A stretch of DNA of 64,000 bases from assembly GCA_934167875.1 (NCBI GenBank), contig CAKPMC010000001.1, positions 13,634 through 77,633 on the forward strand. Reading direction: 5' to 3'. This document shows positions 644-54,775 of this stretch, one piece after another (the stretch's first letter is position 1; each line of letters starts with the position of its first letter). The position numbers and the translations under genes were made by a program. The stretch is from an uncultured Bacilli bacterium. Its GTDB lineage: Bacteria > Bacillota_I > Bacilli_A > RF39 > UBA660. The notes under the pieces were generated by a model. The model saw only the letters and a program-made list of their open reading frames with translations, did no database searches and was not told the DNA's origin.

Positions 644-3600
644 TTATTCACTTACTCTTTCTACATCAAATTTAACATTTACGCCATTTAGATTAACTTC
701 TTCTGTATCTAATTCTTTCTTGATAATATCTAAAGCTAATGTTTCTTTTTTAATTATTTCAATATAATTAGAAATAGCGTTTTCAAAATCATTATTTTCA
801 GTATAGTAGATTTTAATTCTATCAGTAATTTCAAAATCCTTTGCCTTTCTTAAATTTTGAACTTTACTAATAAATTCACGCACAATTCCTTCATTAATTA
901 ATTCACTAGTTAAAGTAGTATTTAAAACAATAAAATGATTTCCTTCATGACTTGCGTTAAATCCTTCTTTAGAAGAAACTCTAATTTCTACCATTTCAGG
1001 AGTAACTTCTACTTCTTCATGATCAACTTCCATTTTGATAGTACCATTACTTTCTAAAGTAGTAATATCTTCTTCACTTAAAGAGACAAGTTTTTCTTGG
1101 AATTCTTTCATATGAGATCCAAACATCTTACCACAAATCTTAAAGTTAGGCTTTACTTCAAAATTCATATATAATGATAAATCTTTCGCAAAAGTAACTT
1201 TTTTTACATTTAATTCTTCTTTAATTAAATCTACTAAATCAGAAATAGTATCCTCATTTTTACCATCTAAAATAACTTCACTAATTGGTTGTCTTACTTT
1301 AATTTTAGCTTCTTCTCTAGCATTTCTACCAAGTGAGATTAAATCTCTTACTAAGTCCATTCTGCGTTCAATTTTTTCATTAATTTTAGCTTCATCACAA
1401 ACTGGATAACTAGCTAAATGAACACTTTCTTCACCAGTTAAATTAGTATAAATTTCATCAGATACAAAAGGTACAATTGGAGCAATTAATCTACAAATTC
1501 CTTCTAATACTTGATAAGTTGTCTTATAAACTGCCTTCTTACTAGTATCAAGACTACTACCCCAGAATCTTCTACGATTACGTCTAATATACCAGTTAGA
1601 TAATTCTTCATTTACAAAACTGTTTACTAATCTTACTGCTTTATTTAAATCATATTCATTCATAGCATGAGTCATATATTTTACTAATTTATTATATTTA
1701 GAAAGTAACCATTTATCAATTTCTTCTAATTCATCATATTCTACTTCAAACTCTCTAGGATCAACTTTATCTGTATTTGCATACATTTCAAAGAATGTAT
1801 AAGTATTTTTTAAGGTATTAAAGAATTTAGATTGAACTTCTTTGATACCATCTTCATCAAACTTAAGTGGTGTCCATACAGGAGATGCATATAACATATA
1901 AAATCTAGTAGCATCTGCTCCATATTTTTCTAAAATACTAAATGGTTCAACTGCATTTCCTTTAGATTTATGCATTTTTTGTCCAAATTTATCTAAAAGT
2001 AAGTCGTTTACAACAACATTTTTATAAGGACTACAACCTTTCACAAAAGTAGAAATTACTAATAAAGAATAGAACCAACCACGAGTTTGATCAATTCCTT
2101 CACTAATAAAATCAGCTGGGAACTGTTTTTCAAATAAATCTTTATTTTCAAATGGATAGTGATATTGAGCAAATGGCATAGAACCAGAATCAAACCAACA
2201 GTCCATTACTTCTTTAACACGACTCATTTCTTTTCCACAATTTGGACATTTAATATGAATATCATCAACATATGGTCTATGAAGTTCAATAGATTCATCA
2301 ATATTCTCAATTGCTTTTTCTACTAACTCTTTACGAGAACCTATCATTTCATCATGTCCACAACTACATCTCCATAATGGAATTGGAGTACCCCAATATC
2401 TATTTCTAGAAATAGCCCAATCATTCATATTTTCAAGCCAGTTACCAAAGCGTTTTTCTCCAACATATTCTGGATACCAATTAACTGTTTTATTAGCTTC
2501 TATAATCTTATCTTTAAAAGCAGTTGTTTTAATATATAAACTAGGTTTTGAATAATAAACAAGTGGTGTTTTACATCTCCAGCAATGTGGATAGTTATGT
2601 ACCATTTTTTGTTTCTTAAATAATTTATCTTCGCTTGCTAAATACTTAATAATATCAAGTTCAAGTTCGGAATCAACTACTAATCTTCCCTTCCATGGTC
2701 CATCTGTATAACAGCCATTTTCATCAACCGGATTTAACATTGGTAAATCATATTTTAATCCTACTTCATAGTCATCTTGTCCAAAAGCAGGAGCTATATG
2801 AACGATACCAGTACCATCTTCCATAGTAACATAATCGGCTACTGTTATATAAAAAGCTTTTTTATTAACAGATAAGAATGGTAAAAATTGTTCATATTCA
2901 CGATATTCTAAATCTTTTCCTAAATATTCTTCTACTACTTCAAATTCATCACCTAATACTTTATGAGCAAGTTTTTCTGCTACAATGAAGTTATGTCCTT
3001 TTGATAAACACTTAACATATTTTTCATTAGGATTTACACAAGCTGCAACATTAGAAATCAAAGTCCATGGAGTAGTTGTCCAAATTAATAAATAAGTATT
3101 ATCTTCATCTTTCATTTTAAAAGGAACTGTTACTGTATTAACACTAATTTCTTTATAACCTTGAGCAACTTCATGACTAGCAAGTCCTGTTCCACATCTA
3201 GGACAGTATGGTAAAATCTTAAGTCCATCATAGATTAATCCTTCATCAAAGAATTTCTTTAAAATCCACCACTCTGTTTCAATATAGTTATTATCATAAG
3301 TAATATATGGATTTTTTAAATCAATAAATTGACCCATTTTATTCGTAAAATCTTTAAATGATGCTTCATTTTTCCAAACAGATTCACGACATTTTTCATT
3401 AAATTCTTTAATACCATATTTCTCAATATCAGTTTTACCACTAAAACCTAATTCTTTTTCTACTTGTACTTCTACTGGAAGGCCATGAGTATCCCAACCT
3501 ACTTTACGAAGTACCTTGTATCCTTGCATCGTTTTATACTTACAAAAAGTATCTTTTAAAAGCTTAGCTAACATATGATGAATTCCTGGCATACCATTAG

Positions 3601-3739
3601 CTGTAGCAGGTCCATCATAGAAAACAAAATAATCTTTTCCCTTTTCAATAGATTTATTTAATAAGTCTTCCTCTAAAAACTTATTCATTAATTTTTCTTC
3701 TACAACACTATTTTTTTCTTTACTTAATTCTTTAAACAT
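644..3739 (-). CDS. ileS: Isoleucyl-tRNA synthetase (class I, long type, 1031 aa)
   Basis: The HIGH-region variant (PGIHHMLAKL) and the KMSKS variant (KMHKSKGN) are present, with editing and anticodon-binding domain architecture. The RBS AAGGGAAAGGGTG precedes the ATG at 3739. Confidence 0.95.
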   Translation of the reverse strand: MFKELSKEKNSVVEEKLMNKFLEEDLLNKSIEKGKDYFVFYDGPATANGMPGIHHMLAKLLKDTFCKYKTMQGYKVLRKVGWDTHGLPVEVQVEKELGFSGKTDIEKYGIKEFNEKCRESVWKNEASFKDFTNKMGQFIDLKNPYITYDNNYIETEWWILKKFFDEGLIYDGLKILPYCPRCGTGLASHEVAQGYKEISVNTVTVPFKMKDEDNTYLLIWTTTPWTLISNVAACVNPNEKYVKCLSKGHNFIVAEKLAHKVLGDEFEVVEEYLGKDLEYREYEQFLPFLSVNKKAFYITVADYVTMEDGTGIVHIAPAFGQDDYEVGLKYDLPMLNPVDENGCYTDGPWKGRLVVDSELELDIIKYLASEDKLFKKQKMVHNYPHCWRCKTPLVYYSKPSLYIKTTAFKDKIIEANKTVNWYPEYVGEKRFGNWLENMNDWAISRNRYWGTPIPLWRCSCGHDEMIGSRKELVEKAIENIDESIELHRPYVDDIHIKCPNCGKEMSRVKEVMDCWFDSGSMPFAQYHYPFENKDLFEKQFPADFISEGIDQTRGWFYSLLVISTFVKGCSPYKNVVVNDLLLDKFGQKMHKSKGNAVEPFSILEKYGADATRFYMLYASPVWTPLKFDEDGIKEVQSKFFNTLKNTYTFFEMYANTDKVDPREFEVEYDELEEIDKWLLSKYNKLVKYMTHAMNEYDLNKAVRLVNSFVNEELSNWYIRRNRRRFWGSSLDTSKKAVYKTTYQVLEGICRLIAPIVPFVSDEIYTNLTGEESVHLASYPVCDEAKINEKIERRMDLVRDLISLGRNAREEAKIKVRQPISEVILDGKNEDTISDLVDLIKEELNVKKVTFAKDLSLYMNFEVKPNFKICGKMFGSHMKEFQEKLVSLSEEDITTLESNGTIKMEVDHEEVEVTPEMVEIRVSSKEGFNASHEGNHFIVLNTTLTSELINEGIVREFISKVQNLRKAKDFEITDRIKIYYTENNDFENAISNYIEIIKKETLALDIIKKELDTEEVNLNGVNVKFDVERVSE

Positions 3740-7510: not shown

Positions 7511-8102
7511 CTAAAAACTCCCCTGCTTTTTGAAAATACAAATATATTTCATTACTAATAGCTTCACCAAGCAGCTTACCCTTTTCTACATAATCGTATA
7601 TTTTATAGCTACTATTTTCCACTCCTACATACCATAAATCAATTCCATTTACTTGTTGAACTATAATAGTATTTCCATAATTATCTTTATTACCACTAAA
7701 CACAATAATACCACTTTCTAGAATTGGCACTAGGTAATTATTATCAACTGTTAGCTTTACTCCTTCATTATAATCTTCTTTAGCTTTATATGTAAGTTTC
7801 TCATCAAAAACCATTGCTGTATCAGGCGTTAAATTAGGTAGTGGAAAAATAGAGCCAAAATATTTATTATACATTTTATCAATTTTAGCAAAAGAAAAAT
7901 TAGTTTGATAAACGTTTTTATTAATCCATAATTTAAAACTAGGATTAACTTTTATAATACATAAGCACACTAATAAAATAATACCAGATATCAAAAGTCT
8001 ATTCAAAGCCAAAATCGAATACTTTTTAGTTACAACACGATTATCATCATTTTTTTTATTTAAATACTTTTGAACTAATCGATATTCATCCATCACTATC
8101 AC
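7488..8102 (-). CDS. Membrane-anchored degenerate M23/LytM-like protein, SpoIVFA-like
   Basis: An N-terminal TM helix is followed by a C-terminal M23-fold signature (GIIVFSGNKDNYGNTIIVQQVNGIDLWYVGV...GKLLGEA) that lacks the zinc-binding His residues. It lies directly upstream of the M50 protease. Confidence 0.5.
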   Translation of the reverse strand: MIVMDEYRLVQKYLNKKNDDNRVVTKKYSILALNRLLISGIILLVCLCIIKVNPSFKLWINKNVYQTNFSFAKIDKMYNKYFGSIFPLPNLTPDTAMVFDEKLTYKAKEDYNEGVKLTVDNNYLVPILESGIIVFSGNKDNYGNTIIVQQVNGIDLWYVGVENSSYKIYDYVEKGKLLGEAISNEIYLYFQKAGEFLDYKEYLE

Positions 8103-10609: not shown

Positions 10610-12043
10610 TTAATATTGTTTTCCCCAATATACTAAGTGAGTAGCTTTTTCTCCACAAACTAAACATTTACCATCGTGATTATCACCATCAAATGGAATA
10701 CATCTAGAAGTAATTCCAGTCTCTTCTTTTATTTTATCTTCACATTCACGTTTTCCACACCAATAAGCCTTGATAAAGCCATTTTCTTTTTCAGCTAAAG
10801 CTTTCATTTCTTCTAGTGTTAAAACTGATTTAGTCATTTCATCTCTTCTAATTTTTGCACGAATATACATACTATTTTGAATTTCTAATAATAGTTTAAT
10901 TACCTCTTCAACTACACTATCTAATGTAACATGAACTTTTTCTAAAGTGTCACGTCTTACCAAAACACATAAATCATTTTCCAAATCTTTTGGTCCAAAT
11001 TCAATACGAACAGGTATTCCTCTCATTTCAGCTTCAGCAAATCTAAAGCCAGGAGATTTTTCACTATCATCAACTTCACAAGTAATACCAGCAAGTTTTA
11101 AGCTTTTAGCTATCTCATAACTTTTATCTAATACTTCAGTATTATTTTTACCAATTGGAATAATAGATACTTTAATAGGTGCGATATTAGGAGGAAGAAC
11201 TAATCCATGATCATCACTATGAGTCATAATCATTGCTCCAATAATACGTGTTGTCATTCCCCAAGAAGTTTGAAACATATATTTTTCAGTATTATCCTTA
11301 TCCATAAATTTCATATTAAAAGCTCTAGCAAACCCATCACCAAAATAATGACTAGTACCAGATTGTAACGCAACACCATTATACATTAAAGCTTCAATAG
11401 TATATGTAGCTTCAGCTCCGGCAAATCTTTCTTTTTCTGTTTTTTCACCCTTTATAACTGGTATAGCTAGTACTTCTTCACAAAAATCAGCATATATATT
11501 TAACATTTTTAAAGTTTCTTCTTTAGCTTCTTCACTAGTAGCATGGACAGTATGACCCTCTTGCCATAAAAATTCTCTACTTCTTAAAAAAGGACGTGTT
11601 GTTTTTTCCCAACGTACAACACTACACCATTGATTATATAGTTTAGGTAAATCACGATAACTTTTAACTATATTGGCATAATGTTCACAAAATAAAGTTT
11701 CACTAGTAGGTCTTACACAAAGTCTTTCTGGTAATTCCTCATTACCTCCTTGAGTTACCCAAGCAACTTCTGGAGCAAAACCTTCAACATGATCTTTTTC
11801 CTTTTGTAGTAAAGATTCAGGTATAAACATTGGCATATAAACATTTTGATGACCTGTTTCTTTAAATTTTTTATCAAGCTCTTTCTGAATATTTTCCCAA
11901 ATAGCAAAACCATAAGGTCTAATAATCATACAGCCTTTAACACTAGAATAGTCAATTAATTCTGCTTTTTTACATACATCAGTATACCATTTAGCAAAAT
12001 CAACATCACGGCTAGTTATTTCTTTTAATTCTTTTTGATCCAT
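10610..12043 (-). CDS. proS: Prolyl-tRNA synthetase, archaeal/eukaryotic-type class II
   Basis: About 478 aa ending in the conserved C-terminal Tyr (YWGKQY) with class II motifs. AGGAAGTGAG precedes the ATG at 12043. Confidence 0.93.
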
Positions 12044-12089
12044 TTTTCTCACTTCCTAGTAAGATTATACATTAAAAACACTTATTTTA

Positions 12090-15865: not shown

Positions 15866-17749
15866 TTAATTTTTAGCTAAAACTTCACAAACTAAATTAC
15901 TTATTTCAGTTGGATTATCAATAGGCAGACCTTCTATTAATCTAGCTTGAGCATATAAAATCTTTGTATATTTTTCAAGTTCATCTTTATTATTTTTATA
16001 TAATTCATCTAACTTTTTACTGATATCATGATTTTCATTAATTTCAAGTATTGTCTTAGCCTTTACCTTTTCATCAGTTGGCATAGCATTCATAACTTTT
16101 TCCATTTCAATTGAAACATCACCTTCAGTAACCAAACAAACTGGATGATTTTTTAAACGATGAGTAAATCTTATATCACTAACATTATTATCTTTAAGTG
16201 TGTTTTTCATAACTTCAAATACATCTTTATATTCCTTATTCTTATTTTGAAGTTCTTGTTTTTCTTCATCACTATCAAGATCTACATTACTAGTAGATAC
16301 ATTAACAAATTGTTTTCCATCATAATTATTCATTACTTGCATAACGAATTCATCAACATAATCAGTTAAATATAATACTTCATATCCCTTATCTTTTAAC
16401 TGTTCTACTTGAGGTAACATATCTATCTTATCAACTGTTTCACCACAAGCATAATAAATTTTATCTTGTTTATCTTTAATACGTGAAATATATTCTTTTA
16501 AAGTAACTAATTTCTTTTCACTAGAAGAATAGAACATTAATAAATCCTGAAGTTCATCTTTCTTTATACCATAACTATTATAAATTCCGAACTTTAATTG
16601 CATACCAAATGCTTTAAAGAATTTTTCATAATTATCCCTATCTTCTTCAATCATCGTTTCTAATTCTTTTTTAATCTTCTTTTCAATATTAGAAGCAATT
16701 AGTCCTAAATTTTTATCTTGTTGAAGCATCTCACGAGAAATGTTTAAAGATAAATCACTTGTATCAACAAGGCCCTTTACAAAACTAAAATAATCTGGTA
16801 AAAGTTCCTTACATTTATCCATAATTAATACGCCATTAGCGTATAACTGTAATCCTTTTTCATATTCTTTAGTGTAAAAGTCATATGGAGCATGTGATGG
16901 AATATATAGTAAAGTTGTATAAGTACATTTACCTTCTACACTAGAATGAATTACCTTAATACTATCTTCATAATCAAAGAATTTATCATGATAGAATTGT
17001 TGATAATCTTCATTTTTAATATTTTTCTTATCTTTTTTCCAAATAGGAATCATACTGTTTAAAGTTTCTTCTTCTGTTTCTTTTTCTACTTCATTGCTAC
17101 CATCTTTTTTATGTTCATGAGTAACCAACATCGTAATAGGATAAGAAATATAATCAGAATACTTTTTAACAATCTGACGTAATTTATATTCTTCTAAGAA
17201 TTCATCATAATCACTACCATCTTTAATAGTAAGAGTAATAGTAGTACCTATATCTTCTTTATTTCCTTCTTTTATTTGATATCCATCTACACCAGTTGAT
17301 TCCCATCTATAGCTTTCTTTACTATCATACTTATGAGATTCAACAACTACATCATTAGCTACCATAAATGAAGAATAGAAACCAACACCAAATTGACCTA
17401 TTATATCAATATTCTTTTTCTTTTCCATTTCCTCTTTAAATAAGGATGAACCACTTTTAGCGATAGTACCTAAATTTTCTTCAAGTTCTTCTTTACTCAT
17501 ACCAATACCATTATCAGAAATAGTAAGTGTACGTTTATCTTTATCTACTGCTAATTTAATTTTTAAGTCATTCTTCTTAACTTTAATATCTTTATCTGTT
17601 AATGATAAATAATATAATTTATCAATCGCATCACTAGCATTTGATATAAGTTCCCTTAAAAATATTTCTTTATTTGTATAAATTGAATTAATCATTAAAT
17701 CAAGTAACTTCTTTGATTCTGCCTTAAACTGTTTTTTCAAAACAATCAT
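15866..17749 (-). CDS. htpG: Chaperone HtpG (Hsp90)
   Basis: The N-terminal ATPase motif NKEIFLRELISNASDAIDK and full Hsp90 architecture are present. The start is either the ATG at 17749 (GGAG abuts it) or the TTG 9 nt downstream. Confidence 0.93.
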   Translation of the reverse strand: MIVLKKQFKAESKKLLDLMINSIYTNKEIFLRELISNASDAIDKLYYLSLTDKDIKVKKNDLKIKLAVDKDKRTLTISDNGIGMSKEELEENLGTIAKSGSSLFKEEMEKKKNIDIIGQFGVGFYSSFMVANDVVVESHKYDSKESYRWESTGVDGYQIKEGNKEDIGTTITLTIKDGSDYDEFLEEYKLRQIVKKYSDYISYPITMLVTHEHKKDGSNEVEKETEEETLNSMIPIWKKDKKNIKNEDYQQFYHDKFFDYEDSIKVIHSSVEGKCTYTTLLYIPSHAPYDFYTKEYEKGLQLYANGVLIMDKCKELLPDYFSFVKGLVDTSDLSLNISREMLQQDKNLGLIASNIEKKIKKELETMIEEDRDNYEKFFKAFGMQLKFGIYNSYGIKKDELQDLLMFYSSSEKKLVTLKEYISRIKDKQDKIYYACGETVDKIDMLPQVEQLKDKGYEVLYLTDYVDEFVMQVMNNYDGKQFVNVSTSNVDLDSDEEKQELQNKNKEYKDVFEVMKNTLKDNNVSDIRFTHRLKNHPVCLVTEGDVSIEMEKVMNAMPTDEKVKAKTILEINENHDISKKLDELYKNNKDELEKYTKILYAQARLIEGLPIDNPTEISNLVCEVLAKN

Positions 17750-17807: not shown

Positions 17808-17847
17808 ATAAACAAAAAAGAAAATGTAAGTAATCTCTTACTTACAT
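17808..17847 (-). terminator. Rho-independent terminator overlapping the valS stop codon
   Basis: On the minus strand a hairpin AUGUAAGUA-agaga-UUACUUACAU is followed by UUUCUUUUUUGUUU. The stem includes the last codons of valS. Confidence 0.6.
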
Positions 17848-20379
17848 ATTATTCTTTAATAATTCTAATTTTTCCTTTTCTTCTGTTAATTTTTTTCTAT
17901 CCATTTCAACTATATTAGCTGGAGCTTTATTAACATAATTACTATTAGCAAGTAAACCTTCACGTCTAGCAATTGAAGCTTCTAATTTAGTTATTTCTTC
18001 TAATTTTTTAGATTCATCTTCTTTACTACCTTCATAGTAATAAGTAATATTAATATTTTTTGATTGATAATTACTACTTAACATATCTGTAATTTCACTA
18101 TCTATTAAATTTTCTTCTTTTATTTTAAGTTGTGAATAATAAATAGATTTAAGTAATTGATCAACTGTTACTTTTACCTTAGCATCTTTCATAATATTAT
18201 TTGATTGTTTTAAGTTACGGATAGAAACGATATCTTCTAGTACCTTATCAATTGTTTCTAATTCATTTGTATAATTATAATCTTCCGCAACAGGATACTT
18301 AGAAATCATGATTGATTTAGCTTCTTTTATTGGTAACATCTGGTAAATTTCTTCTGTTACATAAGGCATAAATGGATGAAGCATTTTAAGAATAGATGTT
18401 AATACCTTTAAAAGTACACTCTTCGTTGTATCATTCATATTAGCTTTAGAAAGTTCAATATACCAGTCACAGAAATCTTCCCAAATAAAGCTATAAAGTT
18501 CATTTCCAACATTATGATATTCATATTTTTCCATGCTTTCTCTAACACTTTTAATAATTCTATTTAGCTTTTCTAAAATCCATTTATCTGTTAATGATAA
18601 ATTTTCTAAAGTATAATTTTCTTCTTTAAAATCTTCCATATTCATTAATACATAACGAGAAGCATTCCATAATTTATTAACAAAATTCCAAGTGGATTTT
18701 ACTTTTTCTTCATCATATCTTAAATCCATACCAGGCGCACTATTTGTAGTTAAGAAAAATCTTAAGGAATCTGCTCCATATTCTTCGATAACGTCCATAG
18801 GATCAACACCATTACCAAGTGATTTTGACATCTTTCTACCAATTTTATCACGAATAAGGCCATGGATTAAACAGTCTTTAAATGGTCTAGAGTTAGTAAA
18901 ATGAAGGCCTTGGAAAGTCATACGATTTACCCAGAATGGAATAATATCATATCCTGTTACTAAACAGTTATTAGGATAGTATCTTTCAAAATCTTCTGTC
19001 TTATCTGGCCAACCCAATGTTGAGAAAGGCCATAAAGCGCTACTAAACCAAGTATCTAAAACATCACTATCTTGTACCCAACCATCTTCTTTAGGAGCTT
19101 CCATTCCTACATATACTTCATCACCTTTATACCAAGCAGGGATTCTATGACCCCACCATAATTGACGAGAAATACACCAGTCATAAGTAATTTCCATCCA
19201 GTGATTCATCGTTTTTTCATATCTTTCTGGCACAAAGTTTACTTTGGTATCTTTATTTTTTTGATTTTCTAAAACTCTATCTGCTAAAGGTCTCATCTTT
19301 ACAAACCATTGTTTAGATAAGTATGGTTCAACTACTGCATCACTTCTCTCACTATGACCAACACTATGAGTCATTGGTTCAATAGAAATTAATAAATCCT
19401 CTTTCTTTAAATCTTCTAATAATTTTTCTCTACACTCTTCTCTAGTTAAACCACAGTATTTTCCAGCATTTTCATTCATAGTAGCATCTGGATTCATGAC
19501 TACAACTCTTTCTAGGTTATGACGATTACCTACTTCAAAATCGTTAGGATCATGAGCAGGCGTGATTTTAACGACACCAGTTCCAAATTCAGGATCAGCG
19601 TGCATATCACCAATAATAGGAATTAATTTACCAACAATTGGTAAGATTACCTTTTTACCAATTAAATCTTTATACCTAGTATCATCTGGATTAACAGCAA
19701 CAGCAGTATCGCCAAATAATGTTTCAGGACGAGTTGTCGCAACATCTAGATACATACTCTTATCTTCTAAATAATATTTTAAATGATAGAAAGCTCCCTC
19801 ATCATCTTTATAAATAACCTCTTCATTAGATAAAGCTGTCATTTGAACAGGATCCCAGTTAATAATTCTTTCTCCCCTATAAATTAAACCTTGATTATAT
19901 AAATCAACAAATACTTGTCTTACTGCTTTTGATAATCCTTCATCTAAAGTAAATCTTTCTCTAGAATAATCTAGTGATAATCCTAAAGTTTTCCACTGTC
20001 TATGAATATTTTCTGCATATTCCTTTTTCCAATCCCAAGCAACTTTTAACCACTCTTCTCTATCCATTTCACGTGGTTTAATACCTTGTTCCTTTAATTT
20101 TTTATCAACTTTAGCTTGTGTTGCGATACCAGCATGATCCATTCCAGGAAGCCACAAAGCATCATATCCGTCCATTCTTTTATAACGAACCATAATATCT
20201 TGTAGTGTTGTATCCCAAGCATGACCTAAATGAAGTTTACCAGTTACATTAGGTGGTGGTATTACGACACAAAAAGGTACTTTACTTTTATCTTTTCCTG
20301 CTTCAAAGAATCCATTATCTTTCCAAAAATCATATTTATTTTCTTCTACTATCTTATGATCATATTTTTTATCTAACAT
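17842..20379 (-). CDS. valS: Valyl-tRNA synthetase
   Basis: A class I HIGH region ([12 protein letters not shown]) and KMSKS (KMSKSLGN) are present, with a C-terminal coiled-coil. AGGAGGAAG precedes the ATG. Confidence 0.95.
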
Positions 20380-20825
20380 AATCTTCCTCCTCTTTTTTTA
20401 TTATCTAATACATTTTTCTTATTCATTTCCATTATTATTTCACTAATACCATGTAATGTTTTCCAAGCAACACCATCTTCTCCTAAATAAATCATAGAAT
20501 ATCCACCAATAACTTGATATTTTGAAAATTCCATTTGATTTGCTGTTAAAAACTCTATTTGTCTATCAGTAACTAATTCTGGAATATAAAATATTAACTG
20601 TGAAACATCATCATCTGATTTTATAACTAAATGACCACTACCAGCAATCATACATGGAGCTTCATGATAATCACTTTCTCTAAAATTAAGACCTATATTA
20701 TAAGTATCAACAAATTCTTTCATCTCACCAGTATGACTAATACCTTCACCAACTTTTTTCTTAAATAATGGTTGAATTATTTGTTTTTCATCTGGAACAA
20801 TCCATAATGTACCTCTATCATTCAT
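20373..20825 (-). CDS. Hypothetical protein (150 aa) translationally coupled between the HD-domain gene and valS
   Basis: The ORF has an internal ATG (MNDRGTL) that overlaps the upstream stop as ATGAATGA, and it overlaps the valS start by 7 nt. No motif I recognise. Confidence 0.5.
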
Positions 20826-21570
20826 TTCTATTAACCCCCTTATTAATTGTATCAAAACACACTTCTCTTAACTTTTTCCATAACTTTTCACTATTAGAAT
20901 CAACATCTATTGTAGCTAAATACAAGTCAAAATTATCAGTACTAACTAATATATCTAAACTTTCATCATAATTAATATCAAAAATAAATGATAAACGAGA
21001 TATAGTTTTATCAGTATCAGTCTTAACTAAATTATTATCAACTGATTCATGTAAACTAAAACTTTTTAAAACTTCTTCAGTAACTTGACTAGCATTAAAA
21101 CTATCAGGATAATTAGTAGCCAACACTCTAAAAATATCAATTTTATCCATATCTCTAATCATCTTAGCATACATTAATTCTTCACTACTTAAACCATTTT
21201 CTATTTTTAATTTATTATGATTGATAATAGCTTTTAAAATAATAGAATCATATTTGTTATCTTTTATAAAATCTCTAATATGTCCATTATCAAAAAGATA
21301 AACACAAGATTCATTAGCATGATCAGTATTAGTAACTTTATCTGATATAATATTAAACTTTTTTATTTGTTCAAATCTACCAATATCATGTAAAAGTCCA
21401 ATAATTTTAGCTAGTTCTAAATGTTCTTTATCTAAATTCAATCTATAAGCGATCTCAGCCATTAAATCCACAACTTTATAGGTATGATAATATTTTAAAC
21501 TTATTAAATCATCCTTTAAATCATAATTACTAATATAGTTTTCAAACGCTAACTTAGCCTCTTCATACAT
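20818..21570 (-). CDS. HD-domain phosphohydrolase (250 aa), first gene of the T-box-controlled valS operon
   Basis: An HD signature (H...LLHDIGRFEQ...TDHANE...NHNK...RDMDKID) is present. The true start is the ATG (MYEEAK) whose RBS AAGGAGGAG is buried in the leader terminator stem. The upstream track residues translate the T-box (LRWYR). Confidence 0.75.
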   Translation of the reverse strand: MYEEAKLAFENYISNYDLKDDLISLKYYHTYKVVDLMAEIAYRLNLDKEHLELAKIIGLLHDIGRFEQIKKFNIISDKVTNTDHANESCVYLFDNGHIRDFIKDNKYDSIILKAIINHNKLKIENGLSSEELMYAKMIRDMDKIDIFRVLATNYPDSFNASQVTEEVLKSFSLHESVDNNLVKTDTDKTISRLSFIFDINYDESLDILVSTDNFDLYLATIDVDSNSEKLWKKLREVCFDTINKGVNRNE

Positions 21571-21795
21571 AAAAAAACTCCTCCTTACATAATAAGGACG
21601 AGCAAACCCGCGGTACCACCTTAATTCATTCAAAAAGAATACCCTCAATTACTTAAATAACGGTAAGTACCGTAACTAGTTACTAAACTCACTAATTATA
21701 CTCCATCGCTACATATTTATATTCATTTACTTATTTTCACCAATCATAAGCTCTCTACAAAAATTCTATAAATACCTCGATTTCATCGCAACAAC
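21571..21795 (-). promoter_or_regulatory. T-box riboswitch leader controlling the HD-gene/valS operon
   Basis: On the minus strand there is an AGAGAG, a GGTGAAAA, an F-box CCGTTA, the T-box AATTAAGGTGGTACCGCG, and a terminator CTCGTCCTT...AAGGAGGAG plus TTTTTTT. Confidence 0.8.
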
Positions 21796-21799
21796 TAAG

Positions 21800-21832
21800 A
21801 TAATTATATTATAATTTTATCAAAAAGTAAAT
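21800..21832 (-). promoter_or_regulatory. Putative sigma-A promoter for T-box leader 2 (TTTACT-17-TATAAT)
   Basis: On the minus strand, TTTACT (21826-21831), a 17-nt spacer and a perfect TATAAT (21803-21808). Confidence 0.45.
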
Positions 21833-21839
21833 TTATTAT

Positions 21840-22103
21840 TTATAAGTTAATTTTTTTCAAATAACTCTTGTTAATAAATAAAGCATTCTCATGCTCTGGA
21901 CTAAGTAATAGTTCATTATCTTTACCAGTTATATAATCACTAAATTTCATATAACTACCATCAGTAGTTTCTGCTATTTTCTGATCAGCCTCTTTAATTT
22001 GAGTATGTATGCATGTAATATTTTTAGTTTTCACTAATGATACACATACATATATATCACCTATATATAAATCTTTAATTACTTTTTCTTGTTTCTTTTT
22101 CAT
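21840..22103 (-). CDS. Hypothetical small protein (87 aa)
   Basis: An ORF upstream of the T-box promoter with no recognised motif. Confidence 0.45.
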   Translation of the reverse strand: MKKKQEKVIKDLYIGDIYVCVSLVKTKNITCIHTQIKEADQKIAETTDGSYMKFSDYITGKDNELLLSPEHENALFINKSYLKKINL

Positions 22104-22353
22104 ATACTACCTCATGCATTAATTATTATAGATATCGAATTAATAAATGTCAAATAAAATATAAAAACATATACTAAACTAGGTGAAGTATATGTTTAAG
22201 CAAAAAGGACATGGCTTCTTCTGTAGATGTGAATCATGTAAAATAAAAAGAAGAAGTAGTTTATGGTATATGGGATGTTTATTTGCATTATTAATTATAC
22301 TTATGTGGCAAGTTTTATTTACTATTTTCATAACCACAAGATTTAATGCTTTT

Positions 22354-23274
22354 CTAATTTTCATATTGATGTGGTGTGTCATAATTGGATTTATTCGTAT
22401 TATTTTTTAAGTAGAAAATAATTTTTTCTATATATAAAACCACATTAGTAACTTGTTTAATCTTAGAATATTCAGCTAATTCTAAATCAATTTTATCTGG
22501 TATAAGAAGAAGAGATAATAATAAATATAATTCTTCTTTTTTTAGTGGATATTTTAATTGATATATTTCTAGTAAACTATCTAAAGAAATATCTAAAAAA
22601 CTATTTCTATATAAAATTTCTAAATCATATATAGGAAGATCAATTCTTGATTTATCCCAACTAATAAAATATAGATCACTATTTTCTATTAAATGACTAC
22701 TACTTAAATTACCATGGATATAAGCGCATCTAATTCTATGCTCATTTTTAATAATAGAATACCACTTTTCTATATATTCTCTACTTTGTCTTATAGCTAA
22801 ATAAATATTAGAAATATTTCTAATTAATAAATAGTTGGCTGGCGTCATATATACTTCTAATTCTATCATATCTTGAATATCGTTATAATATTTATATATT
22901 TTATCTAGTTTATTTATAGTATTCTCATATATTTCTTTTACATAGTCATCATCCACATTTTTATAGAAAGTAGTTTTAGTATGCAAAATACTAACTAGAT
23001 ATATTAAATCTTCTAATCTTTGATCTACTGGTATATTATTATCTTCAACGTAATCTGTTAATTGAAATTTATCTAGATTACTAGAGTAAATATTAGGAAA
23101 ATTATTAAAATTACGCAACTGGAGATAATTAAAAAAATCTTGATTTTTATTTACTTCTTTTAATACATATTTTTTATTATCAGTAGTAATAATAGTTGCC
23201 ATACCCTTACGTTTTATAGATTTAGGTTTTATATTATAATAGTCAAGTATTTCTTGCCTATTCATTATTAGCAC
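22354..23274 (-). CDS. CotS/YsxE-like spore-coat protein (kinase-like fold)
   Basis: Kinase-like remnants are present (IHGNLSSSHL, then WDKSRIDLPIYDL). It lies immediately downstream of the SpoVID-like gene with a 17-nt overlap, mirroring Bacillus spoVID-ysxE. Confidence 0.5.
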   Translation of the reverse strand: MLIMNRQEILDYYNIKPKSIKRKGMATIITTDNKKYVLKEVNKNQDFFNYLQLRNFNNFPNIYSSNLDKFQLTDYVEDNNIPVDQRLEDLIYLVSILHTKTTFYKNVDDDYVKEIYENTINKLDKIYKYYNDIQDMIELEVYMTPANYLLIRNISNIYLAIRQSREYIEKWYSIIKNEHRIRCAYIHGNLSSSHLIENSDLYFISWDKSRIDLPIYDLEILYRNSFLDISLDSLLEIYQLKYPLKKEELYLLLSLLLIPDKIDLELAEYSKIKQVTNVVLYIEKIIFYLKNNTNKSNYDTPHQYEN

Positions 23275-24010
23275 ATGGAATTATTAATTTACTACCAATT
23301 TTAATATCATTTAAATCATTATAATTCTGTAATAGTTCTCGTGTTACTTTATATTTATCCATAATAAACTCTAAAGTATCATTTTCTCTAACTATATATA
23401 CATAGTAAGTAGAAAATGTTTCTTCATTAGAAGCAATTGATGAAAAAATTGAACCAACACTAGTAGGAGTAACTACTCCTGTTTCTTTCTTTGTTTCTAC
23501 TACTTTTTGAGCTGGTGTTTCATCATTAACATTTAAATCTTCTTCTATTTCTTTAGCTAATTTTGATAAAGGATTAACTTCATTATCTTTAAATTCTAAT
23601 TTTTCTTTAGTATCATCAACTTCAACAGGAACAGGAATAGCTAAATCTTCAGTATTATCTTCTAGTACCTCTCTTACCATTTGTTTTTCTTCTAAACCTT
23701 CAATATCTATTTCGACATTTATTTTTAAATCTTCTTCATTTATTATTTCAAAATAAAAGTCTCCAACAACAATTTCCATATTATCCAAATCATATTTATC
23801 ATCAATATTTATAACGAAAGGAAGCTTATAGTGAAATTCCTCTTCTATTTGACTAGCATCAGTCATTTTATAACGACCATCTACTAAAATATCGCCACTT
23901 ATCTCATTATCATCTTTTAATTTTAAATTATGTGTAACTTCAATATCAGTTACTTCCGCAATCATAGTTTTAAAAGTAATTGTTTTTGTAAAAGGTACAA
24001 CCTTCTTCAT
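23258..24010 (-). CDS. SpoVID-like spore morphogenetic protein with a C-terminal LysM domain
   Basis: The C-terminal LysM is YVYIVRENDTLEFIMDKYKVTRELLQNYNDLNDIKIGSKLIIP. There is an acidic middle region, and the N-terminal domain is loosely similar to the SpoVID N-domain. Confidence 0.55.
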   Translation of the reverse strand: MKKVVPFTKTITFKTMIAEVTDIEVTHNLKLKDDNEISGDILVDGRYKMTDASQIEEEFHYKLPFVINIDDKYDLDNMEIVVGDFYFEIINEEDLKINVEIDIEGLEEKQMVREVLEDNTEDLAIPVPVEVDDTKEKLEFKDNEVNPLSKLAKEIEEDLNVNDETPAQKVVETKKETGVVTPTSVGSIFSSIASNEETFSTYYVYIVRENDTLEFIMDKYKVTRELLQNYNDLNDIKIGSKLIIPCANNE

Positions 24011-24065: not shown

Positions 24066-24773
24066 CTATCTTTTTTCTATATTAAATTGATATTTTTTAG
24101 TAACCTGAGTTTGAAATTGTTCCTCTATCTTTTCCAAACTAAGCATTGTATCTTTAGCCATTTTTGAATAAGTATGATATTTATTTTTAAACAATTTAGT
24201 TTGTAACAACATACTCAAAGAATAAGCATATGATAAGCAATCACCATTTTCAAAAATTTGAGGGAATTCATTAATGAGCATATTAATAGTTCCCAAACAG
24301 TAAAATGGATTATATATTGATGCATCGGTTAATTGTTGCGTCAAAATCATATCAGCATAATATTTTTCATTATAAAGAAGTTGATATATTCTTTCTAAAT
24401 CATAGCCTGGAAATTTTCTATATGGTAGTTTTCTTATTTCTGCCTGTTTATTTATCCAATTAGCTGTCAATAATAATTTTTGAGAATCTGATAAGTTTTT
24501 ATAAGTATTTATTACTTCCAACATCTCATTTAAATCAGCTATTGTATCCTTTTTATGTACTCCTTCAAATCTTTTAGTATGAACAATAGTAGCAAGTTTT
24601 TCTATTAACTTAGGACTAGTATAAAAGAAATCATCATGTTCAATAACCTGACAAATAATATCACAGTATATCTCAAAATTCTCTTCTAATTTCATACATT
24701 CAAGTAATTCATCACTAGTCATACCAACAAACTGTGCTTTAATCAACAAGTAATCTAATATTTCTTGGGTCAT
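24066..24773 (-). CDS. Hypothetical protein (about 235 aa) downstream of lon
   Basis: The ORF most likely starts at the internal ATG (MTQEIL), which overlaps the lon 3-prime end. Confidence 0.45.
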   Translation of the reverse strand: MTQEILDYLLIKAQFVGMTSDELLECMKLEENFEIYCDIICQVIEHDDFFYTSPKLIEKLATIVHTKRFEGVHKKDTIADLNEMLEVINTYKNLSDSQKLLLTANWINKQAEIRKLPYRKFPGYDLERIYQLLYNEKYYADMILTQQLTDASIYNPFYCLGTINMLINEFPQIFENGDCLSYAYSLSMLLQTKLFKNKYHTYSKMAKDTMLSLEKIEEQFQTQVTKKYQFNIEKR

Positions 24774-27090
24774 TTGTTTTTCTACCTCTCTTTTTTCTAA
24801 ATAAAACTTTATATATATCCATATAACGATCAACTAAGATAAACTTAATTTCTCTTTTTATATCAATTGGAATTTCATCTAAATCTTTCTCATTACTACT
24901 AGGAATAAAAATAGTACGAATACCATTACGATGAGCACCAATTACTTTTTCTTTTAAACCACCTATAGCTAATACTTTTCCCCTTAAAGTCATTTCACCA
25001 GTCATTGCAACATTGGTATGAATACTAGTATTAGTAAGAAGTGATATTAAAGTTGTTGTTAGTGTGACACCAGCACTAGGACCATCTTTAGGAATAGCTC
25101 CTTCTGGTACGTGTATATGAATATCTTTAGTTTCAAAAATAGAATAATCAATTCCAAACTTATCATAGTTAGCTTTTATATAATCAAGAGCTAAATTAGC
25201 TGATTCCTTCATTACATCACCTAAACTACCTGTCATAATAATATTTCCTTTACCAGGAAAATAAACTGCCTCTATTGGTAATGTATCACCACCATACGGA
25301 GTATAAGCCAAGCCATTTACTACACCTATATGTTCAATTATATCAACATCTGTCCATTGATATTTTTTCTTACCTAAATATTTTTCAATATTATAATCAG
25401 TAATATTATAATAATCTTTTCCTTCACCCAACATTTTATCTTTAACAATTTTTCTTAAAACAGTAGCTAAATTACGAGATAATTCACGAACTCCAGCTTC
25501 CTTTGTATAAGAACGAATCATAGTTAAAATAACTTCATCACTAAAAGATGCTTCCATATCAGTTAAACCATGTTCTTTTAATTCTCTAGGAATTAAATAA
25601 TTTTTAGCTATATCTAACTTTTCATATTCAGTATAAGAAGATAACTCAATAATTTCTAAACGATCTCTTAATTCAGTAGGAATTTGATCGTAATAATTAG
25701 CTGTTGTTATGAACATAACTTGACTTAAATCAAATTCTTCCTCAATGTAATGGTCAGAAAAATTCTTATTTTGTTCAGGATCTAATATTTCTAACAAGCT
25801 ACTAGCTGGATCACCCTTTATATCTTTAGTCATTTTATCAATTTCATCTATGATGAACACAGGATTAGAACTATCAGCCTTTTTCATGCCTTGAATAATA
25901 AGACCAGGAGCTGCACCAATGTATGTTCTTCTATGTCCAACAATCTCAGCTTCATCATTAATACCACCAACTGATATTTTAGTACACTTACGATTTAAGC
26001 TATCAGCAATACTTTTAGCTAGTGTTGTTTTACCTACACCAGGAGGTCCAACTAAACAAATGATTGGGCTTTTTAAATTATTAGTATTTTTCTTAACCGC
26101 TAAATATTCAACTATTCTTTGTTTTACTTGTTCAAGTCCAAAATGTGAAGAATCAAGAACTTCCTTTACCTTTTTTAAATCATTATTATCTTTAGTATAT
26201 TTATTCCAAGGTAAATCAAGTAACCAATCAATATAATTACGTATCATACCTACTTCTGGAGCATTAGGCGTCATAGCTTCATATCTATTAAGTTCTAAAT
26301 ATAAACGTTCTTTTACTTTTTTATTGCATTTTAACTTATCAATTTTATTTCTTAAATCTTGAATCTCGGTATCTTTATCATTAACATCTCCAAGTTCTTC
26401 TTTAATAACTCTAATCTTTTCTCTTAAAACATATTCTTTTTGACTTTTTTCTATCTCATAAGATAACTTATCATCAATTTTCTTTTCTAATTTAGCTATT
26501 TCTAATTCTTTATTAATATCCTGAATAATCATTTCACATCTTTTAATAGCAGAAGTTTCATTAATATATTCTCTCTTTCTTAAAAGAGAAAGTGGCATAT
26601 TAGCAACAATAAAATCAGTTAAATCAGATAAGTTATCAATTTTATTTATATCATTAATAAAATCTTCTCTAAAATCACTTGCTTCAATATAATTGTCTAT
26701 TTTTTTATAAAGAATTCTACCATAGACCTTATCATCTGAATTTATAACATCTTCTATATCATCTATTTCAGCTTCTAATACTTGATCAGATTGTTTATAA
26801 TTCAATATTTTAACTCTTTTTTCACCCATAATAACAATTTTAGTCTTACCATTAGGCATATCTAGTCTTAGTTTAATTAAACCAACTATTCCAACTTGAG
26901 GAAGATTATTAATATCAATTTTGTTATCATTCAAACCACTGTGTACAATTAAAAGACTACTACTATAATAACCCTCTGATAAAGAAAATAATCTTTTTTC
27001 TATTTCAGAGTCAAAATCAGCACGAATTTCATTAGAAGGCAAAAGAACAGTATCACTAAGTACCAATACAGGAAGAGTTAATTTAGTCAT
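24739..27090 (-). CDS. lon: ATP-dependent Lon protease (LonA)
   Basis: An N-terminal LON substrate-binding domain, AAA+ Walker A (GPPGVGKT) and the catalytic Ser motif PKDGPSAG are present. AAGGAGG precedes the ATG (MTKLTLP) at 27090. Confidence 0.93.
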   Translation of the reverse strand: MTKLTLPVLVLSDTVLLPSNEIRADFDSEIEKRLFSLSEGYYSSSLLIVHSGLNDNKIDINNLPQVGIVGLIKLRLDMPNGKTKIVIMGEKRVKILNYKQSDQVLEAEIDDIEDVINSDDKVYGRILYKKIDNYIEASDFREDFINDINKIDNLSDLTDFIVANMPLSLLRKREYINETSAIKRCEMIIQDINKELEIAKLEKKIDDKLSYEIEKSQKEYVLREKIRVIKEELGDVNDKDTEIQDLRNKIDKLKCNKKVKERLYLELNRYEAMTPNAPEVGMIRNYIDWLLDLPWNKYTKDNNDLKKVKEVLDSSHFGLEQVKQRIVEYLAVKKNTNNLKSPIICLVGPPGVGKTTLAKSIADSLNRKCTKISVGGINDEAEIVGHRRTYIGAAPGLIIQGMKKADSSNPVFIIDEIDKMTKDIKGDPASSLLEILDPEQNKNFSDHYIEEEFDLSQVMFITTANYYDQIPTELRDRLEIIELSSYTEYEKLDIAKNYLIPRELKEHGLTDMEASFSDEVILTMIRSYTKEAGVRELSRNLATVLRKIVKDKMLGEGKDYYNITDYNIEKYLGKKKYQWTDVDIIEHIGVVNGLAYTPYGGDTLPIEAVYFPGKGNIIMTGSLGDVMKESANLALDYIKANYDKFGIDYSIFETKDIHIHVPEGAIPKDGPSAGVTLTTTLISLLTNTSIHTNVAMTGEMTLRGKVLAIGGLKEKVIGAHRNGIRTIFIPSSNEKDLDEIPIDIKREIKFILVDRYMDIYKVLFRKKRGRKTNDPRNIRLLVD

Positions 27091-27190
27091 GCTGTTCGCC
27101 TCCTTAAAATTAATTTTTATTATAACATCTAACAAAAAAAAAGCAACAATTTATACAATTTTTTACATTGGATAATATTGCCACTTTAAA

Positions 27191-29690: not shown

Positions 29691-30839
29691 TCATTTCGTA
29701 TTAACAGATATTTCTTTAATCTTTTTAACAAAATAATCATCAGTCATACCTGCAATATAATCAATAACCATTCTTTTACTATCAGTATTATCAATATAAC
29801 TAGCATCCATAGTATTTAAAAATATTTTATATATATCACTATCATAATTCTTATTAGTAATATCATCTAAATACTTATTAAATAAATTATTCATACCATT
29901 TCTATAAAATTCAAGTTCTTCTTTAGTATTAGCTTTACTATAAATATGTTCATAATTAAATTTCTTTAAATCAAAAATAGCTTTATAAACAGAATTACTT
30001 AACTTAATATATGGCTTATTATAACTATTTGTTACTATATCAATAATAATTGTATTAACTATTTCCTTATTAGTAGTGCCAAGTACCTCTCTAATATGAG
30101 TAGGTACATCTTCTCTAGTTAAAACGCCTAAATTAATAGCATCTTCTATATCTCTACCAATATAGCCAATAATATCACTAATACGTACTACACAACCTTC
30201 TAAAGTCATTGGTCTTATTTTTTTTAATATAACCTTGTCAGTATAACATTTCTCATACTCTTCTAAAAATTTTTCTTTAGTTTTAGGATTAGGTTCATAA
30301 ATATTAGATAACATTTCTCCATTATGACACATAATACCATCTAGTGTTTGAATAGCTAAATTACTACCAAATCCTTTTTTTTCTAAAACTAAATAATTAC
30401 GTACACTTTGAATATTATGATTAAACATAGTACCAGTTTCTCTAAGTGATATATCATTTAAAATAGCTTCCCCTGTATGACCAATAGGTGTATGACCAAT
30501 ATCATGTCCAAGCGCAATGGCTTCTATTAAATCTTCATTTAAATTTAATGCTCTACCAATTGTCCTAGCTATTTTACTAACTAACTGAACATGTACTATT
30601 CTTTTACTAATATGATCATTTTGTTTAAATGAAAATACTTGTGTCTTATCTAAATATCTAGTATATGATAAAGAATGAATAATACGATCTATATCATGAT
30701 AAAAATTTGGTCTAATATCATTATCAAAATTTTCTTCTCTGATTCTAATGGCATCACTACTTTTAGTAGCATATTCACTTAAATATTTCTCTTTATTTAA
30801 AAAATTTTCTTTTATCTGTTCTAATAATTTGCTAGTCAT
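29691..30839 (-). CDS. dGTPase-like HD-domain deoxynucleoside triphosphate triphosphohydrolase
   Basis: The HD motif (LGHDIGHTPIGHTGE) and a 380-aa Dgt-family architecture are present. Confidence 0.85.
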   Translation of the reverse strand: MTSKLLEQIKENFLNKEKYLSEYATKSSDAIRIREENFDNDIRPNFYHDIDRIIHSLSYTRYLDKTQVFSFKQNDHISKRIVHVQLVSKIARTIGRALNLNEDLIEAIALGHDIGHTPIGHTGEAILNDISLRETGTMFNHNIQSVRNYLVLEKKGFGSNLAIQTLDGIMCHNGEMLSNIYEPNPKTKEKFLEEYEKCYTDKVILKKIRPMTLEGCVVRISDIIGYIGRDIEDAINLGVLTREDVPTHIREVLGTTNKEIVNTIIIDIVTNSYNKPYIKLSNSVYKAIFDLKKFNYEHIYSKANTKEELEFYRNGMNNLFNKYLDDITNKNYDSDIYKIFLNTMDASYIDNTDSKRMVIDYIAGMTDDYFVKKIKEISVNTK

Positions 30840-53065: not shown

Positions 53066-54317
53066 TTTTACTCCTTAATAATTCTGTAACTGCCTTCATA
53101 ACACCAAATTTACCATAAGAATAAGTAAGTCCTCCTTGTTGATAAGCTATATAAGGTTCTCTTAAAGGTCCATCACATGAAAGTTCAATTGAAGATCCTT
53201 GAGTAAAACAACCTGCAGCCATTATTACTTGATCAGTATAACCTGGCATATCCCAAGGATAAGGAATAGCATTTGAATCTATTGGCGAAGCCATTTGAAT
53301 ACCTTGACAATATTTAATTAGTCCTTCTCTATTATGAAAAATGATATTTTGAACAATATCAGCTCTCTTATCACAGTATCTTGGTTCTACTTCATATCCT
53401 AAATCTTCTAAAACTTTACTAGTTAAAACAGCTGTTTTTAAACTAGCTGCTACTACACTAGGAGCAAAAAATAATCCTTGAAGTATTTGCTTATTAATAC
53501 CCAAAGTAGGTCCAACTTCTCTACCTTCTCCAGGACATGTAAGTCGTTCTCCAGCTAATTCAATCAAATCATGTCTACCAGCTATATAAGCACCATTTGG
53601 ACTAATTCCACCACCTAAGTTCTTAATAAGTGATCCAACCATAACATCACAACCAACAATTATTGGTGTTTCTTCGGTAACAAATTCACAATAACAGTTA
53701 TCTACCATAATAATAATATCTTTATCAATACTTTTAATTAACTCTACTACTTTCTTAATTTTATTAATAGTAATACTTTTTCTAGTAGAGTAACCTTTAG
53801 ATCTTTGAATCTCTATTAATTTTACTTTATTAGTACTTATAAAATTCTTTATTTTTTCATAATCAAAATCATCATCTATTAAATCAATTTGTTCATACTT
53901 AACACCAAAAGATTTTAAACTACTATTATTATTAACAATTCCAATAACTTCATGTAAGGTATCATAAGGAACACCACTTATACTAAGCATAATATCACCA
54001 GGTCTCAAATAAGCAAATAAAGCTACTGTCAAGGCATGAGTACCTGATATAAATTGACTACGTACAAGTGCATCTTCGCTACCTAAAACAGAAGCAAAAA
54101 CTTTTTCAATAGTATCTCTTCCTATATCATTATATCCATACCCTGTAGTACTACTAAAATGAACTTCACTTATCTGATATTTATGAAAAGCACTAAGTAC
54201 TCTTAAAGTATTTTTCTCTTCTAATTTATTTATTTCATTGAAAATATTACTTAAACTAGCTTCAGTATCTTCAAACATTTTTAAAACATTACTATCAATA
54301 TCTAATTCTTGTAGCAT
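53055..54317 (-). CDS. YnbB-family PLP-dependent enzyme (aluminium-resistance / methionine gamma-lyase-like)
   Basis: At 420 aa it has the PLP-Lys region (QRSKGYSTRKS) and the GSLIKNLGGGISPNGAYIAG block typical of this family. Confidence 0.6.
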   Translation of the reverse strand: MLQELDIDSNVLKMFEDTEASLSNIFNEINKLEEKNTLRVLSAFHKYQISEVHFSSTTGYGYNDIGRDTIEKVFASVLGSEDALVRSQFISGTHALTVALFAYLRPGDIMLSISGVPYDTLHEVIGIVNNNSSLKSFGVKYEQIDLIDDDFDYEKIKNFISTNKVKLIEIQRSKGYSTRKSITINKIKKVVELIKSIDKDIIIMVDNCYCEFVTEETPIIVGCDVMVGSLIKNLGGGISPNGAYIAGRHDLIELAGERLTCPGEGREVGPTLGINKQILQGLFFAPSVVAASLKTAVLTSKVLEDLGYEVEPRYCDKRADIVQNIIFHNREGLIKYCQGIQMASPIDSNAIPYPWDMPGYTDQVIMAAGCFTQGSSIELSCDGPLREPYIAYQQGGLTYSYGKFGVMKAVTELLRSKNEN

Positions 54318-54775
54318 TTCTTATTACCTCCATTTTGTTTTTGTCTTTTTAATTTTATTTCTTTAAATATTTCACTTAAAGGATTTGAATATTCACAATC
54401 TATATCTTTTTCTATAAGAATTGGAAAACTAGTATTCTTATAAACAAATCCATGAATAGAAAATTTTCTTAATGTATTATACCTAGTTTTAATCCAATTA
54501 TATTGATTATCACTAATATAATTAGGTATAAACATTATAGCTATATTGCCTTCTATATTTATTACCATATTACCAAAATCTACTAATTGAAACGATAAAA
54601 CCTGACTAGGTATACCATCTTCCTTTGAAATACTATAATTATATTTATCAGCAAATTCTCTTAATTTTTGTCCATGATCAATTGAATCTAAAAAACTCTC
54701 TTCATATATACCATCTGGAATAACTAAATCATTTTCATTTGGTATAATTATTATCTGTTTTAAATAACGTTCCAT
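54302..54775 (-). CDS. Unknown-domain protein (one copy of a roughly 150-aa repeat domain)
   Basis: It shares IIPNEN...G.Y.E...HG...F...Y...FLPN..SDNQ..W with both halves of the upstream gene. AGGAGAAG precedes the ATG at 54775, and it overlaps the upstream gene by 41 nt. Confidence 0.5.
   Translation of the reverse strand: MERYLKQIIIIPNENDLVIPDGIYEESFLDSIDHGQKLREFADKYNYSISKEDGIPSQVLSFQLVDFGNMVINIEGNIAIMFIPNYISDNQYNWIKTRYNTLRKFSIHGFVYKNTSFPILIEKDIDCEYSNPLSEIFKEIKLKRQKQNGGNKKCYKN

Follow-up and report, generated by a model that had tools for sequence, protein, structure and literature searches.

A T-box leader with a valine specifier precedes an HD-domain phosphohydrolase gene, a small orphan gene and valS in uncultured gut Bacilli

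Introduction

Why should the gene of a predicted phosphohydrolase stand first behind a T-box leader, ahead of the gene for valyl-tRNA synthetase (ValRS)? The question is raised by a stretch of 64,000 nucleotides (nt), here called the window, from an uncultured Bacilli bacterium (GTDB lineage Bacteria; Bacillota_I; Bacilli_A; RF39; UBA660). It covers positions 13,634 to 77,633 of contig CAKPMC010000001.1 in GenBank assembly GCA_934167875.1, forward strand. To our knowledge, T-box regulons consist almost entirely of genes for aminoacyl-tRNA synthetases (aaRSs), amino-acid biosynthesis and transporters, and a literature search turned up no report of a valS T-box operon that contains an HD gene. 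The leader is very likely a canonical class-I (transcription-attenuating) tRNA-Val T-box that gates a single polycistronic message encoding an HD-domain protein (HD), a small orphan protein (SM) and ValRS. Coordinates of the window are counted from its first letter, and all of the window features given below lie on its minus strand.

Leader and expression platform

The window was scanned with cmscan against Rfam 15. One match was obtained in the 64 kb, to the T-box leader model RF00230 at 21795..21591, over the full length of the model (1-219), with a score of 108.2 bits (E 5.8e-23) against a gathering score of 93 bits. An earlier note on this DNA had placed a T-box with an AG-box and an F-box on the minus strand, and all three were recovered. 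The T-box string AATTAAGGTGGTACCGCG was read at 21626..21609, and the AG bay GUAGAGAG and the F-box CCGUUA were seen in the Rfam alignment of the leader, which also contains Stem I with a specifier loop, a distal loop, Stem III and an antiterminator. Sequence and Rfam alignment together place the conserved T-box sequence AAUUAAGGUGGUACCGCG at 21609..21626, with a UGGU bulge at 21618..21615 that would pair with the 3' ACCA end of the tRNA; a UGGU bulge fits a tRNA with discriminator A. Just upstream of the leader, a TTTACT-17-TATAAT site (21803..21831; 10/12 matches) is a putative promoter, and the TATAAT box recurs at the same relative position in most homologous leaders.

The specifier codon is GUA (Val), followed by a conserved purine, G; its coordinates, 21711..21713, were read by eye and hold to within 1 nt. 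In the Rfam alignment, UGUAG falls on the five model positions that stay unpaired ahead of the lower Stem I helix. Equivalent leaders were gathered from 43 related genomes for comparison; the 44 homologous leaders all have GUAG, preceded by U, G or A. The specifier was therefore assigned as GUA plus the conserved purine, and not as NGU. GUA-G stands directly before the lower helix, and valS, downstream, is the cognate aaRS gene.

The leader ends in an intrinsic terminator that spans 21571..21603 and is made up of a hairpin at 21603..21577 (GCUC-G-UCCUUAU / UAU / GUAAGGA-G-GAGU; centroid -13.9 kcal/mol) and a U7 tract at 21577..21571, which is followed directly by the HD start codon, ATG 21570. 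The 3' arm of the hairpin, AAGGAGGAGU, contains the Shine-Dalgarno (SD) sequence of the HD gene (GGAGG, 21584..21580), 9 nt before the start codon, in agreement with the earlier claim of a terminator that sequesters the downstream ribosome-binding site. The 5' arm (21603..21592) overlaps the 3' strand of the antiterminator, and the two structures are mutually exclusive. The platform 'ACUCGUCCUU...AAGGAGGAGU-U7-AUG' recurs in about 41 of the 44 homologous leaders. Exceptions are L037 and L038, which have a normal terminator and then a separate SD, and L043, which has a weaker SD.

Operon genes

Three overlapping genes follow the leader. They encode a predicted HD-domain metal-dependent phosphohydrolase of an uncharacterised family (20818..21570, 250 aa), the small orphan alpha/beta protein SM (20373..20825, 150 aa) and a bacterial-type valine--tRNA ligase, valS (17842..20379, 845 aa), which scored 1114.6 bits with NF004349 (cut-off 704 bits) and 1060.6 bits with TIGR00422. 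A six-frame open reading frame (ORF) of 276 aa ('MRVFFLNELRWYRGF...', with LRWYRGF) reads through the leader, and the odd LRWYR extension at the N terminus remarked on earlier is explained by it. The true HD start is ATG 21570 (MYEEAKL), where all 23 aligned homologues begin. The first gene under the leader is thus the 250-aa HD gene and not valS, and the 150-aa gene overlaps it by ATGAATGA, both as the earlier note had it. The SM start was set by homologue alignment at ATG 20825 (MNDRG) and not at the TTG of a 160-aa ORF. The stop of SM overlaps the start of valS by ATGTTAG. With overlaps of 8 nt (HD and SM) and 7 nt (SM and valS), each gene having an SD of its own, the three genes are predicted to share one message. 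No terminator-like site was found from the leader to the end of valS, the stretch between HD and valS included, and the overlapping genes leave no room for one.

Conservation in related genomes

One genome per species (GTDB) was scanned with the HD family alignment, yielding 48 loci. All are from uncultured gut Bacilli, labelled as 'Tenericutes', 'Bacillales', 'Clostridium sp.', Erysipelotrichaceae or Ca. Scybalousia metagenome-assembled genomes. The exact T-box core GGTGGTACCGCG was present in 43 of the 48 loci, 50-80 nt upstream of the HD start. Two loci (L002 and L029) are cut at a contig end and were left out of the count of informative loci; in 44 of the remaining 46, a T-box precedes HD (L048 was added via Rfam), and in L042 and L046 no T-box was found. 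In each of the 11 HD-valS loci tested, Rfam gave the T-box a score of 105-149 bits; among them is L048, whose HD is only 36% identical. valS comes after HD or HD-SM in 45 of the 48 loci, and in 31 of these 45 the HD stop and the valS start overlap or are at most 27 nt apart, often with 1 nt between them. T-box-HD-valS is a clade-wide operon architecture. The earlier note had seen in it something peculiar to this genome, a view that the 44 loci with T-box-HD do not bear out. Of the three proteins, SM diverges fastest and ValRS slowest; the L002 proteins, for example, are 28% (SM), 64% (HD) and 97% (ValRS) identical to those of the window.

In 9 of the genome loci, the gene after HD or HD-SM encodes the other type of ValRS (NF009687, about 1000 bits), which is only about 28% identical to the ValRS of the window. 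An identification of this enzyme as isoleucyl-tRNA synthetase (IleRS) was rejected, as NCBIfam assigns it to archaeal-type ValRS. An archaeal/actinobacterial-type ValRS in place of the bacterial-type valS was seen in L016, L022, L024, L025, L029, L034, L037, L038, L045, L064 and L093. L025 carries both types in tandem and its close relative L044 only the bacterial type, an apparent snapshot of one ValRS type displacing the other in place. The T-box-HD-valS unit has thus been kept through deep divergence and even through a change of synthetase.

Other cargo was seen in some relatives. An Asp/Glu racemase gene lies between HD and valS in L008 (1847..2548), and a GNAT acetyltransferase gene between the leader and HD in L064 (1297..1845). 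L031 (7158..9821) and L050 (5170..7343) carry a second, divergent SM copy, a gene for a BspA-type leucine-rich repeat (LRR) protein and a 97-aa ORF; in L031 a 41-codon 5' fragment of valS is duplicated at 7600..7722 and looks like an insertion scar. Since unrelated genes have been inserted there in relatives, the operon site tolerates passengers. Distant relatives of HD were also seen next to other genes. They are adjacent to leuS and divergent from it in L073 (1426..3834), L075, L082, L083 and L089, and in L084 (744..4630) leuS-HD-HD lie on the same strand; the leuS-adjacent cases are probably one lineage. In L042 (6001..7752) a distant relative of HD is adjacent to fmt.

HD protein

The HD protein matched only generic models, PF01966 with 37.5 bits (3.2e-9; cut-off 22 bits) and the HDIG model TIGR00277 with 27.8 bits (cut-off 27.6 bits). 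An exhaustive hidden Markov model search returned 3387 clusters (50% identity) at E<=1e-3; at E<=1e-30 there were 665. Most are full-length proteins of about 250 aa, and none of the clusters of distant relatives that were looked up carried a name. In 25 diverse members, K26, H29, H61, D62, G64, R65, F66, H84, N119, R139, D140, D142, K143 and D198 are invariant, and at least 90% have H118. H29, H61, D62 and D140 are the metal ligands of the basic H..HD..D pattern. The family has the extended H..HD..H..H..D motif, H84 and H118 being the two extra histidines, and this motif is diagnostic of a dinuclear site (PMC8177086). Multinuclear HD enzymes tend towards bulkier or multiply hydrolysable substrates (PMC8177086). 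From its motifs, the protein is predicted to be an HD/HDIG phosphohydrolase or phosphodiesterase with a putative two-metal site and an extra conserved C-terminal region.

The AlphaFold model of the HD protein is confident (predicted local distance difference test score 95.5). A Foldseek search with it against the PDB gave nothing better than E 0.06, and the HD family profile had no match among PDB sequences. The nearest structural neighbours are of the HD fold, with 2pq7, YpgQ, YedJ and HDOD among them, and include uncharacterised HD hydrolases. The family appears to be distantly related to the nucleotide pyrophosphohydrolases of the YpgQ/YedJ type; YpgQ (B. subtilis, 5dqv), YedJ (E. coli, 3gw7) and 2pq7 are 11-22% identical to HD. 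YpgQ is mononuclear, with the motif H..HD..D (PMC8177086), whereas the HD family has the two extra histidines and the added C-terminal region. YqeK, a diiron hydrolase of diadenosine tetraphosphate (Ap4A; 2o08 / 8wmy), shares with HD the HDIG-type HD domain and the extended motif.

A defence-system role was considered and dropped; in PADLOC, HD resembled Cas3-HD only weakly and in a generic way, and SM had no match. The window encodes a second, unrelated HD protein 8 kb upstream (29691..30839; HD plus HD_assoc, dGTPase-like, 382 aa), which has no match to the HD family profile.

SM protein

The SM family is tiny, with 35 clusters in public data, and no fold match was found for SM. The gene is present in about a quarter of the genome loci, there directly after HD, and overall it almost always comes just after HD. 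A copy in L130 that is only 28% identical to the SM of the window is still found directly after HD. In L049, HD (58% identity) and SM (50%; hhalign probability 100%) follow glmM, with neither a T-box nor valS. Because this HD-SM pair sits without valS, SM tracks HD and not valS; it is a clade-restricted partner of HD. A reading of HD as a toxin and SM as its immunity protein was dropped, as most genomes have HD without SM.

The window has two more genes of the SM family, one of 158 aa with a single domain (54302..54778; E 4e-13) and one of 312 aa with two tandem SM domains (54735..55673; E 1.6e-28). They sit between a short-chain dehydrogenase/reductase gene and a Met-gamma-lyase-family gene. 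The family is expanded in this genome and nearly absent from public data.

Genomic setting

Upstream of the leader lie lon (24739..27135), then one gene without assignment, a spoVID-like gene (23258..24010; LysM and a weak SPOCS_spoVID-N match below the cut-off) and a gene that was assigned to the ysxE position by its place only, having no family match (22354..23274). An 87-aa ORF (21840..22103) with a perfect TTGACA-17-TATAAT promoter sequence at 22153..22125 comes just upstream of the putative T-box promoter with no terminator between, and is conserved in L001 (75%) and L009 (38%); the non-coding stretch between this ORF and the HD ORF is 270 nt long. In L022, L035, L044 and L097, the place of the 87-aa ORF is taken by a second HD gene, a paralogue. 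Downstream, valS is followed by htpG (15866..17749). The order of lon, the spoVID-like gene and the ysxE-position gene before the valS leader is that of B. subtilis, where we take the region to run spoVID-ysxE-valS-folC. It differs from the B. subtilis region in having HD (with or without SM) between leader and valS, and htpG instead of folC after valS. The order suggests a remnant of sporulation genes in a reduced Bacilli genome.

The window is very AT-rich (22-29% G+C) with a strong and constant GC skew of about -0.3, and 47 of its 48 ORFs of at least 150 aa are on the minus strand. Two other aaRS genes are encoded in it, for a type-2 IleRS (644..3739; 1031 aa with DUF5915) and for a prolyl-tRNA synthetase of the archaeal/eukaryote type (10610..12052; ProRS-C_1); neither has a T-box.

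Discussion

The leader shares with the RF00230 T-boxes of B. subtilis tyrS, glyQS and valS a match to the full model, a specifier followed by a purine, the AG bay, the distal loop, the F-box, a 14-nt T-box sequence with a UGGN bulge, mutually exclusive antiterminator and terminator, and an aaRS gene under its control. It differs from them in that its first cistron encodes an HD hydrolase and not a synthetase, and in that the 3' arm of the terminator is the SD and the U tract the spacer from SD to AUG, so that the distance from terminator to start codon is zero; in addition, its specifier loop is without a clear GAA S-turn. Both RNA element and mechanism follow the textbook. The differences lie in the cargo and the compact platform, and the clade-wide extent of the layout is new here.

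In the mechanism that we propose, transcription would begin at about 21796 from the TTTACT/TATAAT promoter, and Stem I would offer the specifier GUA to the anticodon of tRNA-Val. When the tRNA is uncharged, its free 3' ACCA end would pair with the UGGU of the T-box and stabilise the antiterminator, which would occupy the 5' arm of the terminator and let RNA polymerase continue; the 3' arm, with the SD of HD, would stay single-stranded in the read-through RNA. When the tRNA is charged, the terminator would form and the transcript would stop in the U7 tract, one base before the HD start codon. In a full-length RNA that had refolded, the same hairpin would hide the ribosome-binding site too. HD, SM and valS would be co-transcribed through this tRNA-dependent read-through, and all three would increase when the charging of tRNA-Val drops.

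Several observations weigh against a single message gated by tRNA-Val. The Rfam score of the leader is only 15 bits over the gathering score, and the canonical S-turn that its specifier loop lacks is found in many relatives. An internal promoter in HD or SM is possible in DNA of 26% G+C; promoter-like matches are at chance in such sequence (52 found, 60 +/- 8 expected) and for that reason were given no weight either way. The racemase, GNAT and LRR genes inserted in the same operon of relatives count here as well. The gating itself could also be mainly translational, if the main job of the hairpin were to sequester the SD and not to terminate transcription. SD sequestration is used by actinobacterial ileS T-boxes, and GGAGG is part of the hairpin's 3' arm both in the window and in about 41 of the 44 homologous leaders. 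Control of this kind is unlikely, since a perfect U7-U8 tract, the signature of an intrinsic terminator, follows the hairpin in nearly all leaders, and L037 and L038, with their separate SD after a normal terminator, point to termination as the conserved element. Because the U tract is conserved, we take termination of transcription to be the primary mode; SD sequestration in refolded full-length RNA may be a secondary bonus.

That HD and SM are functionally tied to valine charging or aminoacylation is a further claim, plausible but in our view somewhat less likely than not. Its main rival is that both are passengers. The T-box would then be an ancestral valS leader, HD and later SM having been inserted between leader and valS in an ancestor of this clade and kept there by gene-order inertia in small, compact genomes, with products unrelated to tRNA-Val or valine. 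We regard this account as evenly poised between true and false. valS is commonly under T-box control in Firmicutes, and the same slot took a racemase, a GNAT protein, an LRR protein and extra SM copies in relatives. Two more observations favour passengers and count against a functional tie: only about 12 of 80 distant HD members (33-64% identity; from a metagenome scan weighted to such members) are beside valS or a T-box, the other contexts being heterogeneous, and the glmM-HD-SM arrangement of L049, without a T-box, indicates that HD-SM is viable elsewhere. L042, with HD-fmt and likewise no T-box, counts against the main reading. Against passengers, the arrangement has been kept from 96% to 36% HD identity and even where the type of ValRS was swapped, HD comes first behind the leader in every case but L064, and family members beside leuS (L073, L084) and fmt (L042) hint at a tRNA/aminoacylation theme. 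The earlier note had offered a more specific tie, with HD as a small alarmone hydrolase, a YqeK-type Ap4A hydrolase or a 5'-nucleotidase that would couple the turnover of (p)ppGpp, Ap4A or nucleotides to tRNA-Val charging. Ap4A is made by aaRSs, the dinuclear-type motif is common to HD and YqeK, and the YqeK model TIGR00488 matches HD weakly (E 0.003). Its score of 17.5 bits is, however, far under the cut-off of 70.15, and no RelA/SpoT-type (HD_4) or YfbR-type match was obtained in Pfam and NCBIfam, where the generic HD model was met instead. With no PDB sequence found by the family profile and with 2pq7, YpgQ, YedJ and HDOD as closer structural neighbours, this identity is very improbable, and a link from HD to nucleotide or alarmone turnover is speculation.

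In a broader form of the functional tie, HD would found a family of HD enzymes linked to aminoacylation, with SM as its accessory subunit. It would be a phosphodiesterase or pyrophosphohydrolase with two metals that uncharged tRNA-Val induces, and would act on something that ValRS or its tRNA makes or requires. We think this doubtful. If true, the substrate could be dinucleoside polyphosphates, other adenylate side-products or damaged tRNA 3' ends, and retention of HD with two unrelated ValRS types and next to leuS and fmt would be explained.

With an arm of the terminator as the SD and no spacer, the platform is a neat natural case of an element that could control transcription as well as translation. 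Should HD turn out to be a passenger, the locus would remain a good illustration of how an operon grows behind a riboswitch and of how one type of ValRS takes the place of another. The locus also gives a physiological handle, predicted induction at low charging of tRNA-Val and production together with ValRS, on a large HD family without a characterised member, and likewise on the tiny orphan family SM that accompanies it.

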